A DNA stretch of 9,212 nucleotides from IMG/VR virus record IMGVR_UViG_2657244931_000007; one strand, 5' to 3'. Below, one piece after another: positions 236-7,360 of the stretch. Source of the stretch: a virus. Taxonomy: Duplodnaviria > Heunggongvirae > Uroviricota > Caudoviricetes. The notes below the pieces were generated by a model. The model had not been told where the DNA came from and ran no database searches. It was given only the letters and a program-made list of their open reading frames with translations. Position 1 is the first letter of the stretch, and each line of letters opens with the position of its first letter. The position numbers and the translations under genes are program-made.

Positions 236-254
236 AGGAGGCATTACGCCTCCT
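236..254. other. Inverted repeat AGGAGGC-N5-GCCTCCT overlapping the recombinase stop codon
   Basis: Perfect 7-bp arms at 236..242 and 248..254; no adjacent U-tract on the minus-strand transcript, so not a classic terminator. Confidence 0.4.
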
Positions 255-783
255 CTTCTTCCTTCTTAATTCGCTGTACCGTTGAAGGAGCAACATTAAA
301 GCTCTCGGCGGTTTTACGCACTGACACGCCAGCGGAAAGGGCTTTCTTTATACCTTCTCTATCTACTGCTTTTCCATTACCACGCTTTGTAGGATTGACG
401 GCTTGCGCTTCTCGTTTACGTTCTAGCATCAGTTCACGTTCACACGTTGCAACTGCCGACAACATCGTAAGCATCATCTTTCCCATCGCGCTTGTAATGT
501 CTGCAATGATCCCTTCTTTGTGAAATCGAACAATCACACCTCGATTATTAAGTTGTTCAACTAAAGCAAGGATGTCTAAGGTGTTACGTCCTAAACGGTC
601 GAGAGAGTGCACGTGTAAGGTGTCGCCTTCTCTCAGATAGGCTAAACACGCTTGTAAGCCTGGGCGGTTAGTGTCTTTACCAGACAGCTTATCTTCAAAG
701 ACTTTATCGAGAGTTACTCCTGCAAGCTGGCGATCAGTGTTCTGATCTACAGTGCTCACACGCTTATAACCGATATTGCTCAT
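244..783 (-). CDS. Small serine recombinase (resolvase / DNA invertase family), 179 aa
   Basis: N-terminus MSNIGYKRVSTVDQ has the catalytic serine at position 10 in the conserved Y-x-R-V-S-T context; VFEDKLSGKDTNRPGL and HVHSLDRLGRN match Hin/Gin/Tn3-resolvase catalytic-domain motifs; C-terminal helix-turn-helix (VSVRKTAESFNVAPSTVQRI). SD-like AAGGGG (complement of 790..795) sits about 6 nt upstream of the ATG at 783. Confidence 0.88.
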   Translation of the reverse strand: MSNIGYKRVSTVDQNTDRQLAGVTLDKVFEDKLSGKDTNRPGLQACLAYLREGDTLHVHSLDRLGRNTLDILALVEQLNNRGVIVRFHKEGIIADITSAMGKMMLTMLSAVATCERELMLERKREAQAVNPTKRGNGKAVDREGIKKALSAGVSVRKTAESFNVAPSTVQRIKKEEEEA

Positions 784-858: not shown

Positions 859-910
859 GCCTTATAGGTACGGAATATTACACGATTTAGCTGTATTCAT
901 TTGGTATGCC
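835..910. repeat. Direct repeats GTATTCATTTGGT (837..849 and 893..905) just upstream of the recombinase gene; candidate recombinase site (res-like) or operator
   Basis: 13-bp identical direct repeats 56 bp apart, overlapping the predicted recombinase promoter region. Confidence 0.4.
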
Positions 911-1352
911 TAATGGATACACAGGGGGATAGATTAAATGGTGTTCTGTTTATACAGGTTTATTTGTTAGATCAACAATTTGGCATTTCTAAACAGATGT
1001 TTGAACGTTGCCAAATGTATTGACAACACAAGAAAAGGGCTTGCTATGCCACGCATTACACGAAATAAGGCTGTAAAAACAAAATAAATTTTAAAATTTG
1101 CACAAACAAGAAAACTCGTTCAGAAACAAGCAGAACAATTTTTAGCCAACAATTTCTGATGGTGCTCTGTAAGCCGCATTACACAAGGCTTTGCGAAAGT
1201 GATGTAAAAGTGAAGAAAGTTAACATTGCACTTTTAAGCTACTTTTCATTGAATTTTTAGTATGGAATTACACAGGAATAAGTTAGGGATATTCTATGAT
1301 TTACACAGGGAATATAGGGGGATTATGGCACACACATAGAAAGGCATTACAC
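877..1352 (+). repeat. Dispersed array of an ATTACAC(A/G) motif, same orientation (copies at 877, 1055, 1178, 1267, 1299(TTTACAC), 1346; partial ATACACAGG at 917)
   Basis: At least 6 copies in about 480 bp, irregular spacing, often extended to cATTACACagg; candidate protein-binding iterons. Confidence 0.55.
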
Positions 1353-1510
1353 AGAGTGCTATGTGACAAATGGATGTAACGAGAGGTTACATTCAGCTAT
1401 CTGAAATGCTCTCTGTAAGAAAGTAGGTAGTAACGGTAGGTCACTGTGAGCTACCCCCACAGAATTCTGTTACCCCTATCAAGTCTGATACCCGATAAGT
1501 ATAAATAACA

Positions 1511-1611
1511 CCTAGGAAATGATTTCCGATCTATTTAGGAAGTAACCTAGGAAGTGGTTTCCTACCTACTTAGGAAATGAGTTCCTACCTACCTAGGAAA
1601 TGAGTTCCACC
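1511..1611. repeat. Iteron cluster: four copies of a 13-bp palindromic core GGAA(A/G)TG(A/G)(T/G)TTCC with shared CCTA...TACC flanks
   Basis: Cores at 1515..1527 (perfect palindrome GGAAATGATTTCC), 1550..1562, 1573..1585, 1596..1608; the last three centres are 23 bp apart. Confidence 0.7.
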
Positions 1612-1672
1612 AATACTATAATTAAATACTATAATTAAATAATATAAATAATATTCTTTATACTATATATAT
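1612..1672. repeat. Very AT-rich tract with tandem ATACTATAATTAA x2 (1613..1625, 1626..1638); candidate DNA-unwinding element next to the iterons
   Basis: Almost pure A/T directly 3' of the iteron cluster. Confidence 0.5.
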
Positions 1673-1680
1673 GATCTTTT

Positions 1681-1860
1681 GCCTTCCGGCGTTAGCTTCA
1701 CTCTCTGGCAAGCAGCCTTACTCCGCTACCTTTCGGGCTTCGTGGCTGGCCCGTTCCGCTCACACCGAAAGCAAAGCGTTACTTTCTTCGTGTAACTATC
1801 GTTGGCGGTAACGCCCACGAAGAAATACTATTGCGCTGTGCGCAGAAGAGTAATCACCTA
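1681..1860. other. GC-rich island with nested stem-loops; candidate structured non-coding RNA or structured DNA site (strand unknown)
   Basis: Clearly GC-richer than the flanks. 9-bp stem TTCTTCGTG (1784..1792) / CACGAAGAA (1816..1824) encloses GGCG-GTAA-CGCC (1804..1815; GNRA-type tetraloop); second stem CTTTCGG (1730..1736) / CCGAAAG (1765..1771). Confidence 0.35.
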
Positions 1861-1898
1861 ACCAATCATACTGATTGCTACCAATCATACTGATTGCT
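1861..1898. repeat. Perfect tandem duplication of a 19-bp unit ACCAATCATACTGATTGCT, each with internal inverted repeat CAATCA-TAC-TGATTG; candidate operator for a dimeric DNA-binding protein
   Basis: Units at 1861..1879 and 1880..1898 are identical; 6-bp arms with 3-bp spacer inside each. Confidence 0.7.
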
Positions 1899-1923
1899 TA
1901 CGTGTTAACTCTCTCTAACTCTT

Positions 1924-2081
1924 AATTCCACTTCCTACATTTAATAACTCTCGTTATTCTCTGTAGTTGTGTAATTACTCGAAGAGAGAGCGGCTAAAGC
2001 TCAATTACACTCTGCTTTCCTCGTGTAATTTCACTAAGCCTCAATACAATTCCACTTCCTACATTCTGTAGTCGTGTAATT
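1924..2081. repeat. Duplicated module AATTCCACTTCCTACATT + CTGTAG(T/C)(T/C)GTGTAATT; copy 1 is split by a 19-bp hairpin-forming insertion
   Basis: 18-mer identical at 1924..1941 and 2048..2065; 16-mer at 1961..1976 and 2066..2081 (one mismatch); 1942..1960 TAATAACTCTCGTTATTCT is present only in copy 1 and contains AATAAC/GTTATT inverted arms. GTGTAAT (reverse complement of ATTACAC) at 1969, 2023, 2074 and 1790 (GTGTAAC); forward AATTACAC at 2003. Confidence 0.65.
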
Positions 2082-2083
2082 GT

Positions 2084-2115
2084 TTTCGGTGGAAAAGCCA
2101 GAGGCGACACCGAAA
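2084..2115. other. Hairpin TTTCGGTG-N16-CACCGAAA; its 3' arm shares the 10-mer ACACCGAAAG with the hairpin at 1730..1771
   Basis: Perfect 8-bp inverted arms at 2084..2091 and 2108..2115; ACACCGAAAG at 1762..1771 and 2107..2116. Confidence 0.5.
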
Positions 2116-2125
2116 GAGAATTCTG

Positions 2126-2210
2126 ATCTTATTAATCTTATCTATCTTAGTTAATCTTCTTACTTATCTTACTTACTTATCTTACTTTATCTACTTTATT
2201 ATTAATAATA
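2126..2210. repeat. G-depleted T-rich tract of degenerate CTTATCT / TACTTA repeats
   Basis: Only one G (2150) in 85 bp on the plus strand; strong strand asymmetry. Confidence 0.6.
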
Positions 2211-2691: not shown

Positions 2692-2753
2692 ATGAAAAAG
2701 ATCAGATTTTTTTATGAAAAGGTATTGACAAATGTTTCTTTATATGTAATAAT
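2692..2753 (+). promoter_or_regulatory. Early-operon promoter: -35 TTGACA (2725..2730), 17-bp spacer, extended -10 TGtAATAAT (2745..2753); direct repeats ATGAAAA(A/G)G (2692..2700, 2714..2722) upstream and AGGTATT (2720..2726, 2754..2760) bracketing the core
   Basis: Perfect -35 hexamer, 17-bp spacing, TG-extended -10, about 110 bp upstream of the first plus-strand gene. Confidence 0.55.
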
Positions 2754-3051: not shown

Positions 3052-3075
3052 TAGACAAGAGAAGGAGAAAACCAA

Positions 3076-3264
3076 ATGAATATTAATTTTGATTCTGCAA
3101 CTTATAACGCGTTGTTAAATCGCGCAAAGGCAGAAGGGAAATCAATTCCAAAACTTGTTAATGAACTACTAATTACAGTCCTTACAAAGGAGGAACTAAA
3201 TGATCAAAAATATCAAAACAATTGCCGAAGCGAAAGCCAAATGTCTAAATCAGAAAGATGGTAA
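3076..3264 (+). CDS. Ribbon-helix-helix (Arc/Mnt/CopG-like) DNA-binding protein, 62 aa; putative transcriptional repressor
   Basis: MNINFDSATYNALLNRAKAEGKSIPKLVNELLITVL fits a beta-strand / helix / helix RHH pattern; RBS AAGGAG at 3062..3067; 3' end overlaps the next gene by 65 nt. Confidence 0.65.
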   Translation: MNINFDSATYNALLNRAKAEGKSIPKLVNELLITVLTKEELNDQKYQNNCRSESQMSKSERW

Positions 3265-3931
3265 ACAAAAATATGTAGTTGTTGAGCAATGGTTGAAGAT
3301 GTTTAAAAAATGGTATTCACCATCTGGTAATGAATACACCGCTACACTGCCAGCCGTTGAAATCTATAGCTATATAGCTGGATTCAATGAACAAGGGCAA
3401 GAATGTTACGCTACTCAAAAAACATTAGCTAATATTGGAATGGTTAGTGATCGCCAGGTTCGCAATATTATAAATATGTTTGTTGATATGGGAGTTCTTT
3501 CTGTAGAGGCACGGGACGGTCAAACATCACTCTATAAAGCATTACCATTTACAGATGCACATATTACTCCCCCAGGAGAATCATCACTCTCTGATCTTTC
3601 TGAGGCAGAAGAAGCACAGGAACAACCTAAAGGCCATAAACAGCCTTCTTTTGATGTTCTTGATGATTGGGATGCGCCTTTGCCGTGGGAGACGGAAGAA
3701 ACACCTGTTTCATCAAGTGAAAAGGTAGCTAATGATAATGAGGAGGATGTGTTAGAGAATTTTGCCTCTCTTATCATCCAGGAGAAACACACACGAACAG
3801 GAGGAGCATCATTTATTGAGTTTGCAAATTCACTAGCTTGTAGATACGGGCTAAAACGACCAAATGGTATTGAGGCATATTTTTCTAAGCATTACCCAAA
3901 TGTATATGACGACTTTGATATTCCATTTTAA
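3200..3931 (+). CDS. Winged-helix-like DNA-binding protein with acidic C-terminal region, 243 aa; candidate replication initiator or regulator
   Basis: Strong RBS AAGGAGG (3187..3193), 6-nt spacing; segment YATQKTLANIGMVSDRQVRNIINMFVDMGVLSVEA resembles a wHTH; C-terminal half is acidic and low-complexity (SEAEEAQEQ ... DDWDAPLPWETEE). Confidence 0.75.
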   Translation: MIKNIKTIAEAKAKCLNQKDGKQKYVVVEQWLKMFKKWYSPSGNEYTATLPAVEIYSYIAGFNEQGQECYATQKTLANIGMVSDRQVRNIINMFVDMGVLSVEARDGQTSLYKALPFTDAHITPPGESSLSDLSEAEEAQEQPKGHKQPSFDVLDDWDAPLPWETEETPVSSSEKVANDNEEDVLENFASLIIQEKHTRTGGASFIEFANSLACRYGLKRPNGIEAYFSKHYPNVYDDFDIPF

Positions 3932-3942
3932 TAAGGAGGGTT

Positions 3943-4221
3943 ATGATTCAATATTTAGTAAAAAATCAAGTAGACAGAATTCAGTGTAATGACACAGGAA
4001 AACGCATCTACGAGACACTTGCTTACCTCTATAAAGGAAAGCCAACACCGCTAAAATATAGCGATGTGTTACATCGAGCAGGGTGCTCTGAAGCTGGTTT
4101 AAAATTCTGGCTGAAACAGCTATCAAATTTCGGTGTTATAGAGATTAAAGAATTATCTTTCTCTACATTCAATCTCAAAAGACTAGATAAAGAAATAGAA
4201 TTCATCTATTCCACTCTCTAA
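3943..4221 (+). CDS. Small wHTH-like protein, 92 aa
   Basis: RBS AAGGAGG immediately upstream; YSDVLHRAGCSEAGLKFWLKQLSNFGVIEIKE has the same helix-turn-helix / wing pattern as the preceding protein. Confidence 0.65.
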   Translation: MIQYLVKNQVDRIQCNDTGKRIYETLAYLYKGKPTPLKYSDVLHRAGCSEAGLKFWLKQLSNFGVIEIKELSFSTFNLKRLDKEIEFIYSTL

Positions 4222-4379: not shown

Positions 4380-4761
4380 GAAAATCGGTGATTCAGCTTC
4401 TCTTCTAAGTAAACCTAAATCTATTCTAAGACGCAAAGACTTTAAAGAGCTAGTTACGCTCACCAAGCATAATAGCGCCCCTGGCGAATGGAAAACAGAG
4501 ATCATAGAACATTCTCCCTCTGTGCCTTGTGGAGATGAATTTAACGCCTTACAAGAAATCTTATCTTCAACACCTGGCGTATTCTGGAAACCTAGAAAAA
4601 GAAAAGAGTATATTGTTGATAGCTCTGATTTACGCAAATACCAGATTTTAGGATTTGAAGACTATAACCACTACGTTGGTTATCTCGCCACCAATGGCCT
4701 AAATAATTTAGTTCCAGACTTTCAAATTTTAGATAATGCTGATCACTATGGAGACTTTTAA
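4351..4761 (+). CDS. Hypothetical protein, 136 aa, basic N-terminus
   Basis: Same-strand ORF in operon context; weak SD AAAGGA about 7 nt upstream. Confidence 0.65.
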   Translation: MAKRKNNVVKKIGDSASLLSKPKSILRRKDFKELVTLTKHNSAPGEWKTEIIEHSPSVPCGDEFNALQEILSSTPGVFWKPRKRKEYIVDSSDLRKYQILGFEDYNHYVGYLATNGLNNLVPDFQILDNADHYGDF

Positions 4762-4762
4762 T

Positions 4763-5098
4763 ATGAACAAAAACACGTATGACACAATTTACTCACTAAT
4801 TAATTATTATGAGGATGATTACCTCCTGCCTTTAAACCGCGCTGAACTTGAAGCATACAAAGAAAACACGCCAGCGGCACTAAATGAGGCGTTTAAACAC
4901 TGGGATTTAGCTGTGAATGCCTTTGAGCACCTCTCTAAGCGTGTAGAGATGCTCTGTAAGCGTGAGAACGCATACCTGACCTGCTGTCAGATATGGGAGC
5001 TATCAAATTGGATAGAAGGTATTGAATCGGACGTTCGCTATGTAGGAGACGGACTTGTTGAACTAGCTCAACGCTTAGGCGCTATCACAGAAGAATAA
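4763..5098 (+). CDS. Hypothetical protein, 111 aa (start chosen at the ATG at 4763 rather than the ORF-track start at 4736)
   Basis: GGAG at 4749..4752 gives proper spacing to the ATG at 4763 and removes the overlap with the upstream gene; the ATGs at 4736 and 4748 have no SD. Confidence 0.65.
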   Translation: MNKNTYDTIYSLINYYEDDYLLPLNRAELEAYKENTPAALNEAFKHWDLAVNAFEHLSKRVEMLCKRENAYLTCCQIWELSNWIEGIESDVRYVGDGLVELAQRLGAITEE

Positions 5099-5442: not shown

Positions 5443-5655
5443 ATGTTGTTCTTAAATGATAAAGAGCAAATCATCAAGTATAAAGATGAAATGCTGAAAA
5501 TTAATCCACAAATTACCGAAATGGTAGCTAAATACGCTGGGTGTTCTGTCGAGGAAGTAGAAAGATGTGTTGAAAAATATTTTTCTCCTTCTTCTCCGTC
5601 TACACCTTCCCTTAATGAATTAATCAAATTAAAAGCTAAGGAGATTACTAAATGA
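5443..5655 (+). CDS. Hypothetical protein, 70 aa, first gene of the structural operon
   Basis: ATGA start/stop overlap with the next gene suggests translational coupling; weak SD AAGG upstream. Confidence 0.6.
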   Translation: MLFLNDKEQIIKYKDEMLKINPQITEMVAKYAGCSVEEVERCVEKYFSPSSPSTPSLNELIKLKAKEITK

Positions 5656-7156: not shown

Positions 7157-7360
7157 ATGGAAGTGATTTTGAAATCAAAAAATGGTGTACACGTACATTT
7201 AGATGCTAATGATTCTAGAGGCTTGTTAAATCTGAAATATCTATGTTCTCTCTTAGATGTTCCATATGAAGGCGTAAAAGCCCGTATGTTCAGACTAAAC
7301 GAGAGTATTGATCAGGCTCTACACCATTTCTTAAGCAAAGAAGGTGATAAAAATGATTAA
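7157..7360 (+). CDS. Hypothetical protein, 67 aa
   Basis: RBS GAGAGGTGA at 7141..7149; only about 34 bp after the terminator, so likely expressed by read-through. Confidence 0.6.
   Translation: MEVILKSKNGVHVHLDANDSRGLLNLKYLCSLLDVPYEGVKARMFRLNESIDQALHHFLSKEGDKND

Follow-up and report, generated by a model that had tools for sequence, protein, structure and literature searches.

Judged from its counts and its conservation in sequence, the word ATTACAC is a real, conserved control signal that points toward a replication origin from both sides. It was studied in a window of 9,212 nt (the whole stretch of viral DNA analysed here), which lies in a satellite-like island of ~12 kb at tRNA-Thr that is present in 728 of 5426 complete E. 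coli genomes (~13%). The parts of the window that surround the motif are as follows.

244..783, - strand: gene for a small serine recombinase of 179 aa, reading outward from the non-coding region (PF00239 Resolvase, E 7.5e-34; phrog_125, DNA invertase)
877..1352, + strand: left array of eight TTRCAC copies, all reading toward the origin (core starts 878, 1056, 1098, 1179, 1226, 1268, 1301 and 1347), from counts against shuffles
1143..1250, + strand: nearly invariant block among 14 aligned Escherichia loci, from the conservation track
1435..1490, + strand: single-copy remnants of other iteron types, namely D (1435-1458), C (1454-1473) and B (1471-1490)
1510..1610, + strand: type A iterons CCTAGGAAATGAGTTCC, four to five units, predicted binding sites of the wHTH Rep
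1612..1672, no strand: AT-rich DNA-unwinding element (A or T at 56 of 60 bases)
1676..2130, - strand: conserved, strongly structured module of ~450 nt, adjoining the unwinding element and containing all right-hand motif copies (fold z-score)
2725..2753, + strand: sigma-70-like promoter TTGACA-17-AATAAT with an upstream TG, for the rightward operon
3200..3931, + strand: gene for a wHTH replication-initiator-like protein (Rep) of 243 aa (PF13730 HTH_36; phrog_270, phrog_186, phrog_391)

The motif and its polarity around the origin

The motif, which an earlier note had singled out, is well above chance: the window holds 11 exact copies of ATTACAC against 1.34 expected (sd 1.18), a number reached by none of 200 shuffles. 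Nine of the 11 fall within 877-2080 (877, 1055, 1178, 1267, 1346 and 2004 on the + strand; 1969, 2023 and 2074 on the - strand), the other two being at 3984 and 7080. The core of this short, asymmetric word is 5'-(A)TTRCAC(R)-3', a purine being tolerated at position 4, and the sequence more than two bases to either side of the copies carries little information. Counted by strand, the TTRCAC core occurs eight times on the + strand and never on the - strand of the left flank (784-1510; 0.72 and 0.58 expected), and four times on the - strand and once on the + strand of the right flank (1681-2540; 0.26 and 0.50 expected), a strand-specific enrichment of about tenfold per flank that was matched on the enriched strand by none of 2000 shuffles on either side. 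The copies are irregularly spaced and unphased, at distances of 33-179 bp.

Eight + copies on the left and four - copies on the right bear out the earlier description of two opposed groups with the iteron and AT-rich core between them. The figures of at least six left and four right copies that went with it hold if one mismatch or indel is allowed and fail as exact counts; copy 1300 reads ATTTACAC and copy 1790 reads GTGTAAC, neither being an exact ATTACAC. The right group had been described as four copies of the reverse complement, a picture that missed the + copy at 2004 and the degenerate + partners AATTCCAC at 1924 and 2048; because of these, the right group is better described as a set of inverted-repeat (hairpin) pairs.

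Across 27 Escherichia loci the left flank carries 185 + and 9 - copies and the right flank 26 + and 105 - copies, with the polarity flipping at the unwinding element. The layout is kept in Escherichia variants whose right flank is non-homologous, and also in a metagenomic relative that has a capsid identity of 52% and a different iteron type. Among the 14 aligned Escherichia loci single copies turn over while their number and orientation are kept: copies 1178, 1267 and 1346 are retained in 11-14 of the 14, and copy 1226 is mutated in 6 of the 14. Conservation of copy number and orientation among related elements thus extends over homologous and even non-homologous flanks and, together with the non-random frequency of the motif, argues for a functional cis-element organised around the origin. 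An extended form, TTRCACGA(T/A), is common to E. coli, Citrobacter and the metagenomic relative. The arrays are weak or absent in relatives from Klebsiella, Enterobacter, Serratia, Dryocola and Cronobacter, where the structured module is retained. On the left, the nearly invariant block contains a hairpin, AAGCC-GCATTACACA-AGGCTT, with copy 1178 in its loop, and the Citrobacter counterpart keeps the stem and changes the loop; the left array as a whole (877..1352) has no significant secondary structure (fold z -1.5 and -2.4).

The motif is independent of the types of Rep and recombinase encoded around it. At least four unrelated iteron types occur, and the type co-varies with the N-terminal type of Rep (remnants D, C and B in the window were recognised by comparison with loci where those units are multi-copy iterons). 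TTRCAC accompanies all iteron types, is independent of Rep type and is unrelated in sequence to any iteron. Relatives replace the serine recombinase with tyrosine-family enzymes of 183-205 aa (six loci in five genera) or 291 aa (locus L042), or have none, and the arrays persist in loci whose serine recombinase is a different one, in those with a tyrosine enzyme (Citrobacter and L042) and in those lacking a recombinase (L006 and L019). To the right of the origin, the three relatives scanned (Citrobacter L037, Enterobacter L034 and E. coli L003) each have, in the corresponding position, a + strand promoter-like site matching that at 2725..2753, and the promoter-region words TATTGACA/TTGACAAA recur in further genera.

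The structured module on the right

The right-hand module is homologous across Escherichia, Citrobacter, Klebsiella, Enterobacter, Cronobacter and Dryocola, and folds strongly on the - strand, with a z-score of -8.6 over 1676..2130 and, in a separate run, of -10.4 as against -4.8 on the + strand. Its elements are listed below.

1783..1825, - strand: hairpin S2, outer stem TTTCTTCGTG/CACGAAGAAA, inner stem GGCG-GTAA-CGCC; motif copy 1790 overlaps the 5' arm
1833..1843, no strand: palindrome GCGCTGTGCGC, a conserved landmark
1861..1898, + strand: operator-like tandem pair of 19-bp units ACCAATCATACTGATTGCT, both containing a palindrome (repeat family D9)
1924..1976, - strand: hairpin with arms AATTCCAC (1924) and GTGTAATT (1969) and inner hairpin TAATAACTCTCGTTATT
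1992..2040, - strand: hairpin S4, outer stem GGCT/AGCC, inner stem AATTACAC (2003) and GTGTAATT (2023)
2048..2081, - strand: hairpin that repeats the 1924-1976 unit, its arms being AATTCCAC (2048) and GTGTAATT (2074) (repeat families D11 and D13)

The right motif copies are therefore the arms of three to four hairpins, and the spacers of the inverted pairs vary (12, 18 and 37 bp). The - strand is the more stable one for the whole module in four of six genera and for hairpins S2 and S4 in all six, which is an argument from energy only, and G-U pairs are commoner on the - strand in both hairpins. The inner stem of S4 covaries across genera. The outer stem of S2 is replaced by TGTGCC/GGCACA in Citrobacter and by TTGTGCA(A)/T(T)GCACAA in Klebsiella and Enterobacter, and locus L042 has an inverted pair, GTGCAA (2817, + strand) and TTGCAC (2845), that could by its sequence form an S2-equivalent stem. 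The palindrome core GCTGTGCGC is common to five module types or genera, including the otherwise non-homologous L003 type, and the longer form CGCTGTGCGC to four. The L003-type module is itself structured, with z-scores of -5.4 and -4.3, and pairing occurs among its motif copies. Global RNAalifold runs on MAFFT alignments of the right module gave a weak consensus because the variable stems are misaligned, and local folds per genus were used instead. A search of Rfam 15 gave no match at the gathering score and only two chance-level matches at E <= 5.

Possible functions of the motif

Our preferred, though tentative, interpretation is that the copies are strand-polar accessory origin signals of the single-strand-initiation kind. 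The motif always reads toward the unwinding element, and it therefore lies, on each side, on the strand that would be displaced by a replicative helicase moving outward 5'->3', that is, on the leading-strand template. Rep would bind the iterons and open the AT-rich element, and the polar flanking signals would then act on unwound DNA, by single-strand initiation or primosome loading, to start two leading strands; bidirectional replication from the origin is an assumption of this model. Host factors might be recruited through the C-terminus of Rep (...DDFDIPF), which resembles the acidic tip of SSB, whose partners include DnaG, PriA and chi, or the replisome of the helper might be used. Consistent with this are the enrichment of the motif, the polarity flip in 27 loci, the independence from Rep and recombinase, the pairing of copies in hairpins and the covariation of S4, to which can be added the lack of a conserved promoter over the module, of a DnaA box and of a helicase or primase domain, the last by Pfam and PHROG in the ten window ORFs (seven without a Pfam match; 5443-5655 and 7157-7360 excluded). 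Stable hairpins beside the unwinding element, by which single-strand initiation signals are judged, are found in the right module (z -8.6) and are lacking from the left array. It also counts against the interpretation that left copies lie outside hairpins, that right copies lie in stems rather than in single-stranded loops, that the far-left copy is near the recombinase -35 and that the arrays are weak or absent in genera that keep the module. No known primase or primosome recognises the ATTACAC word, which likewise counts against this reading. The hexamer AAGCGG, a possible primosome assembly word, plays no part in the argument.

Several known origins offer partial parallels. In plasmid R1 the G-site lies ~400 bp downstream of oriR, and oriV of RSF1010 contains ssiA and ssiB. 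As in these, a hairpin-rich segment here lies beside iterons and an AT-rich element, on the strand that the helicase would leave single-stranded, and the two RSF1010 signals are on opposite strands, as in the two flanks here. Unlike them, the island reuses a 7-8-nt word in several stems and adds an unstructured same-strand array on the other side; the likeness is one of layout, and the island signals are candidates only. In satellite P4, ori and crr consist of clustered octamers, TGTTCACC, to which the alpha primase-helicase binds; there too a short word forms two clusters apart from each other in a phage satellite, and in P4 both are required in cis for replication. The island differs in having no alpha-like primase-helicase among the ten ORFs scanned, a different word, and separate true iterons that co-vary with Rep. 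SaPI and PICI origins likewise belong to satellites and have an AT-rich unwinding region between two sets of short repeats, which are iterons to which the Rep helicase binds. Those of SaPIs are closely packed and belong to the initiator itself, whereas the copies here are sparse (33-179 bp), strand-polar and initiator-independent.

A duplex regulator site is nearly as likely as a single-strand-initiation signal. On this view all copies would be operator-like and bound by a single sequence-specific protein, probably a monomer, encoded by the host, helper or island; the protein would regulate divergent promoters, organise the origin or do both, with its orientation set relative to the origin complex. 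A short asymmetric word with a purine tolerated at position 4 and many redundant copies fits such a site, as does the occurrence of the extended form in E. coli, in Citrobacter and in the metagenomic relative. The far-left copy lies 5-20 bp upstream of the recombinase promoter -35 in E. coli and Citrobacter, and a copy in Klebsiella appears to be similarly placed; this placement looks like that of a transcription-factor site. Against a duplex regulator, none of the three island proteins compared tracks the motif, be it the Rep N-terminal domain, whose types change while the motif is constant, the small wHTH-like protein after Rep (22% identity between two motif-sharing variants) or the first small protein (26% identity in L042). 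The spacing is irregular and unphased, the variable spacers of the right inverted pairs (12, 18 and 37 bp) suit hairpins better than dimers, and no clustering is seen in the presumed helper phage muut, the one phage examined, whose genome has 30 copies of ATTACAC against 30.8 expected and at most three copies of ATTRCAC, or five of TTRCAC, per kb per strand.

It is unlikely, in our estimation, that the right module is a structured RNA of ~450 nt, transcribed leftward to the origin and serving as a primer or regulator like RNA II of ColE1. The motif would then act at the RNA level: its right copies would be arms of stems, and the left part of the same transcript would contain complementary GUGUAAU words. 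The - strand z-scores of -8.6 to -10.4, the greater stability of that strand in four genera, its additional G-U pairs in S2 and S4, the A/G variation of the motif, which fits pairing with U, and the covariation of stems all suit an RNA, but G-T wobble in single-stranded DNA would give an identical strand asymmetry. Moreover, the E. coli, Citrobacter and Enterobacter loci scanned have no conserved - strand sigma-70 promoter right of the module, no Rfam family matches and the left region has no significant fold.

The earlier note had compared the arrays with plasmid partition centromeres, handcuffing iterons and nucleoprotein recombination complexes, in which the copies would be accessory sites. 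In favour of such readings, two opposed groups of short repeats adjoin an iteron origin and a site-specific recombinase gene. These proposals are largely refuted, and we consider them very unlikely. A centromere is opposed by the lack of any ParA, ParB or ParM/R-type protein in the ten ORFs of the window (seven without a Pfam match; two short ORFs excluded), annotated relatives likewise having no par genes. The motif is not a handcuffing or copy-control iteron like those of P1 incA and F incC because it is not an iteron and does not co-vary with Rep type, and it is not part of a res site or recombination complex of the neighbouring enzyme because it persists with a serine, a tyrosine or a missing recombinase. 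Nor does the irregular spacing of 33-179 bp suggest polymerisation of a protein on the array.

Least probable of all, and highly so, is that the copies are low-affinity DnaA boxes in an oriC-like arrangement: E. coli oriC does contain two oppositely oriented arrays of low-affinity DnaA sites, and the right six bases of the motif (T-R-C-A-C-R) match the TNCACA of the DnaA box TTATNCACA, but the copies differ from the box at three to four of its eight specified positions, no site with <=1 mismatch occurs in 784-2862 (nine elsewhere in the window against 11.4 expected), the spacing is much looser than in oriC, where the sites are tightly arrayed, and the two arrays here flank the unwinding element, which in oriC is outside them.

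Other candidates were tried and rejected. As a helper-phage promoter word, ATTACAC is at chance and unclustered in the whole muut genome, and the T4-type late promoter word TATAAATA gave no informative pattern. By inspection, the copies have no -10 or -35 partner at a fixed spacing, as sigma-70 promoter elements would. The Tus-Ter consensus consists of the core GTTGTAAC and a conserved G-C(6) pair; by inspection, even the copy that fits best, 1790 (CGTGTAACTA), departs from the core at two positions and is without G-C(6), and the others have a 2-nt insertion relative to the core. Compared by eye with their consensus sequences, the marbox (AYnGCAC), LacI/GalR half-sites, the CsrA GGA and the sigma-54 -12 element fit a few copies at most. 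An invertible segment was rejected in view of the lack of a strong flanking inverted repeat and the identical gene orientation in every locus.

The satellite-like island and the meaning of its origin

A 'distant' blastn of the region against phages gave no match, and megablast against plasmids gave only partial copies (9-21% of the query) at ~90-93% identity in two E. coli records. A wider reading, which we put forward as doubtful when taken as a whole, is that the island belongs to an undescribed Enterobacterales satellite family that parasitises large lytic Stephanstirmvirinae, and that the TTRCAC arrays with the hairpin module are a new strand-polar initiation signal. None of the papers searched describes a satellite of Stephanstirmvirinae phages. 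Members would carry capsid, tape-measure-like and Dit/baseplate genes and lack terminase, portal, helicase and primase. Their origin would be a battleground in which iteron and Rep modules of at least five types replace one another, and certain phages would possess an Odn-like putative nuclease made of two satellite Rep DNA-binding domains (types B and A) and a T5orf172 domain. The half of the origin that stays the same whatever the Rep would consist of the TTRCAC arrays and the hairpin module, and it would be read by replication proteins of the host or helper that the SSB-like tail of Rep brings in.

There is a precedent in Vibrio cholerae, where the nuclease Odn of phage ICP1 joins a copy of the Rep DNA-binding domain of the satellite PLE to a T5orf172 nuclease (PMC8263062). 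The likeness is in context, not in motif, and consists of exchangeable ori and Rep modules and a phage protein that combines a Rep domain with a putative T5orf172 nuclease; the differences are an HTH_36 wHTH Rep as opposed to RepA_N, another host and phage group, and two Rep-like domains.

The island has a second repeat system around an iteron origin that is initiator-independent, strand-polar and placed, for half of it, in conserved hairpins. Initiator-and-iteron origins are familiar; in this element the TTRCAC system stays constant while the iteron and Rep half has been exchanged repeatedly. The element is a common one, being carried by ~13% of complete E. coli genomes. If the copies are priming sites, they would show how a satellite without its own helicase or primase starts replication in a cell infected by a lytic phage, and would identify the origin segment that is not open to swapping as a means of evading phage nucleases.

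TTRCAC copies on either side of the AT-rich element

Exact ATTACAC occurs 11 times in the whole 9,212-base window against 1.34 expected (sd 1.18; shuffle maximum 6), and 9 of the 11 copies fall within 877-2080.

Exact motif copies and origin elements
877, 1055, 1178, 1267, 1346 and 2004, + strand: ATTACAC
1969, 2023 and 2074, - strand: ATTACAC
1510-1610: type A iterons, four to five units of CCTAGGAAATGAGTTCC, left of the AT-rich stretch
1612-1672: AT-rich stretch by base composition, 60 bp, 93% A+T

An earlier note had described two opposed groups of ATTACAC facing a core. Two of the copies that it listed are not exact, the one near 1300 reading ATTTACAC and that at 1790 GTGTAAC. All copies share the core TTRCAC; across instances from many loci the consensus is (A)TTRCAC(R), beyond which the flanks add little information. 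To the left of the AT-rich element (784-1510) TTRCAC was found 8 times on the + strand and never on the - strand (0.72 and 0.58 expected), and to its right (1681-2540) 4 times on the - strand and once on the + strand (0.26 and 0.50 expected). Because the strand counts exceed expectation on both flanks, with none of 2000 shuffles reaching the count on the enriched strand, the pattern is real, and the opposed groups described earlier were borne out.

TTRCAC was mapped in 16 loci spanning the identity range and then in 12 further loci from viral-contig records, and each map has + copies left of the AT-rich element and mostly - copies right of it. Summed over 27 Escherichia loci, which share ancestry, the left flanks hold 185 + and 9 - copies and the right flanks 26 + and 105 -. 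Because of that shared ancestry these totals weigh less than three other observations. In variants with a different right module (L003-type), the right flank cannot be aligned to the window from 1674 to about 2406-2450, save for a 57-nt piece, and this non-homologous flank nonetheless carries 3-4 - copies in the form TTGCAC. A metagenomic relative (L042), with 52% capsid identity and another iteron type, has 5 + copies on the left and 3 - and 1 + on the right. Finally, copies turn over: in an alignment of 14 loci, 6 have a mutated site at 1226, 3 at 1178 and 1 at 1267, and some loci carry TTRCAC where the window has none. Taken as a set, these observations suggest that selection acts on the number and orientation of the copies and not on particular positions; motif columns are only slightly better kept than their surroundings (identity to the window 0.94 versus 0.86). 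Conservation of copy number and orientation in relatives, a check proposed in the earlier note, thus holds across the 27 Escherichia loci and L042, even where the right flank is non-homologous. Citrobacter and K. aerogenes have a left array (TTTGCACGAT twice, TTACACGAT once) and no right array, and K. pneumoniae, Enterobacter, Serratia, Dryocola and Cronobacter have weak arrays or none.

Hairpins of the right module

The right-hand - copies lie in a structured segment (1676-2130), and + partners for them were sought allowing one mismatch to AATTACAC.

Pairing of right-hand copies
1924 (+), AATTCCAC: pairs with the copy at 1969 (-)
2003 (+), AATTACAC: pairs with the copy at 2023 (-)
2048 (+), AATTCCAC: pairs with the copy at 2074 (-)
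1790: copy overlapping the 5' arm of the stem TTTCTTCGTG/CACGAAGAAA

The predicted fold of the segment gave z -8.6 (100 shuffles) and -10.4 (24 shuffles) for the - strand and -4.8 for the + strand, and for the left array region the fold was not significant (z -1.5 and -2.4). Structure is also found in the non-homologous L003-type module (z -5.4 and -4.3), with TTGCACAA at 4568 pairing with TTGTGCAA at 4810. Six genera share a homologous window-type module, with the kept landmarks GCGCTGTGCGC, GGCTAAAGCTCA...TTCACTAAGCC and GCCAGAGG. Within it the hairpin S4 (1992-2040) is constant in location and varies in its inner stem, and the stem of a second hairpin, S2 (1783-1825), changes across genera in the same manner. 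The - strand is the more stable for S2 and S4 in all six genera, and for the whole module in four of the six.

Inner stem of S4, - strand
E. coli: AUUACAC/GUGUAAU
Enterobacter: CUUGCAC/GUGUAAG
Cronobacter: CUGG/CCAG
Citrobacter: ACCG/CGGU

Several further features were seen in this region. At 1861-1898 lie two perfect tandem 19-bp units ACCAATCATACTGATTGCT, each containing the palindrome CAATCA-TAC-TGATTG, an operator-like arrangement that would suit a dimeric protein, for instance an RHH protein; two loci (L012 and L013) have a single copy of the unit. The word CCGCTCAC (1756-1764; L003 4661; L037, from Citrobacter, 5684) is common to both E. coli modules and Citrobacter, and apart from it the window-type and L003-type modules are essentially non-homologous. 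The interval 2120-2215, which separates the structured module from the promoter region, consists of pyrimidine-rich short tandem units (CTTATCT, TTACTTATCTTAC) with 28% G+C and strong negative GC skew.

A modular origin on a putative phage satellite

The origin is modular: iterons at one position are of at least five or six unrelated types, each with its own N-terminal domain of Rep, the 243-aa wHTH replication-initiator-like protein (3200-3931, +). Units found there in other loci include TACCCCTATCAAnnnTGATA, CCCTAACAGAAnnCTGTTA and GGTAGGTCACTGTGAGCTAGGGG, that of Klebsiella is ACATACATCAAAATGATGTA and that of the metagenomic relative CATGTGGCAATATTTGCC. The N-terminal wHTH type of Rep switches together with the unit, identity being 90-99% in E. 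coli within an iteron type (about 60% to the Citrobacter protein that goes with an identical unit) and 21-38% between types, and the exchangeable units would therefore be the initiator's sites. Types D, C and B survive in the window as single-copy remnants, in series at 1435-1490 just left of the type A iterons, and two loci (L011 and L015) each hold two complete iteron-plus-AT-rich units, A and D. The Rep C-terminus (3902-3931) ends in ...NVYDDFDIPF and is similar to the acidic tip (...DFDDDIPF) with which E. coli SSB engages its partners, DnaG, PriA and the chi subunit among them. An ending of the form [DEQ]-x-[ILV]-P-F recurs in most other Rep types of the family. The C-terminal halves are of at least three kinds, and they recombine without regard to the N-terminal domain.

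An E. coli chromosome carries, beside tRNA-Thr and downstream of proA, a ~12-kb island (L001 13155-25503), part of which matches the window at 99% identity.

Order of the island
small serine recombinase; 2-kb geneless stretch; small genes with the wHTH replication-initiator-like protein
capsid-E-family protein; tape-measure-like protein; baseplate/Dit-like protein; tyrosine integrase

Of 5426 complete E. coli genomes, 728 contain the non-coding stretch, nearly always on the chromosome and unannotated, and relatives of the capsid protein (38-64% identity) occur in equal gene order in Citrobacter, Klebsiella, Enterobacter, Cronobacter, Dryocola and Serratia. Because short stretches (162-207, 3062-3228 and 3295-3555) are 95-99% identical to Stephanstirmvirinae phages of ~146-151 kb, and because no terminase, portal, helicase or primase is recognisable on the island, it is likely to be a satellite of these phages. 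Among the papers searched, none links a satellite to Stephanstirmvirinae phages and none describes the island.

The recombinase gene beside the non-coding stretch (244-783) is serine-type in E. coli, with two types, tyrosine-family (183-205 aa) in Klebsiella, Enterobacter, Serratia, Citrobacter, Dryocola and Cronobacter, tyrosine-family (291 aa) in L042, and missing in two loci (L006 and L019). This functional replacement hints at a task like resolving multimers or inverting DNA. Downstream of this gene lies the 46-nt stretch 162-207. Of the 58 phage records that match it, most do so at 93-100% identity; all are Stephanstirmvirinae-like and about 146-151 kb, and in several the match lies near the record end. 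The stretch could be a shared cis-site, e.g. a packaging or regulatory signal. An RHH-like 62-aa ORF (3076-3264) is unannotated in a 99%-identical RefSeq record, and other variants have annotated equivalents of ~55 aa; phages PaulScherrer and VEcB match 3062-3228 at 99% identity. The left window end (85-144) holds six or so 10-bp-periodic units (ATAAATAGCC / ATAAATACAT / CTAAATACCT), including two TATAAATA words.

Possible roles of the motif and a phage counterpart of Rep

The motif is a short asymmetric word, independent of the initiator, that reads toward the unwinding element from both sides and on the right forms part of conserved hairpins directly adjoining it. Were a 5'->3' helicase to load at the AT-rich element and travel outward, it would displace the bottom strand to the right of the element and the top strand to its left. 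The strand so displaced carries 5'-ATTRCAC-3' on both sides, and on the right it is also the better-folding strand. The two groups would then be strand-polar accessory signals on unwound DNA, starting two leading strands. The R1 G-site and RSF1010 ssiA/ssiB are single-strand initiation (ssi) signals beside plasmid origins, and since the polar word lies on the displaced strand in a layout resembling theirs, we put this forward as a tentative reading, possible and short of probable. Three inputs to it are that no helicase or primase was recognised on the island (ten window ORFs scanned), that the DnaA box TTATNCACA (at most one mismatch) has no match anywhere in the 2-kb non-coding stretch, and that Rep has the SSB-like tail. 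Its weaknesses are that the left copies have no hairpins and that the right copies sit in stems rather than loops.

Almost as likely is a regulator that recognises the copies as duplex DNA, for the far-left copy lies just upstream of the recombinase promoter -35 in E. coli and Citrobacter (a copy is similarly placed in Klebsiella), as fits a transcription-factor site. A leftward structured RNA made from the right module is a possibility that would account for the strand asymmetry, but it has neither a conserved promoter nor an Rfam match.

The readings offered in the earlier note fared less well. Handcuffing by control iterons fails because TTRCAC accompanies every iteron type and differs from the iteron units, and is thus neither an iteron nor a control copy of one. 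No ParA/ParB-type gene was found in Pfam and PHROG scans of ten window ORFs (seven without a Pfam match), which speaks against a partition centromere, and a recombination complex was rejected since the arrays occur with a serine recombinase, with a tyrosine-family one and without any. Identities beyond those in the note were set aside as well. The copies are not a recognisable sigma-70 promoter element, no partner hexamer lying at a fixed distance from them on inspection, and they are not DnaA boxes, given the lack of matches to TTATNCACA. Nor is the motif a word of the likely helper, the one phage genome examined (muut, L008) having 30 ATTACAC against 30.8 expected and no cluster. Among the island proteins that could be compared, none tracks the motif.

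None of the family definitions that could be applied describes the TTRCAC arrangement. In placement beside the origin it resembles the ssi signals, and in working it would be most like these or the P4 ori and crr clusters. It is best placed among origin-accessory repeats as a new form, on a satellite family that has apparently not been described.

The product of the phage gene muut_154 (L008 31258-32256) has two HTH_36 domains and, after them, a MUG113/T5orf172 (GIY-YIG-type) domain. Residues 1-107 share 66% identity with Rep of an Enterobacter island that has type B iterons, and residues 123-214 share 91% identity with the window's Rep, which goes with type A iterons (related window stretch 3295-3555). 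ICP1 Odn has the same architecture, a Rep-like DNA-binding part joined to a nuclease-type domain; its DNA-binding domain is a copy of that in the initiator of the PLE satellite, whose origin it cuts, and it has been proposed to favour replicon exchange in PLE (PMC8263062). Because of this match muut_154 may be an anti-satellite nuclease, perhaps one of dual specificity. If it acts like Odn, this would explain the frequent swaps of iterons and Rep while the half of the origin with TTRCAC and hairpins persists.
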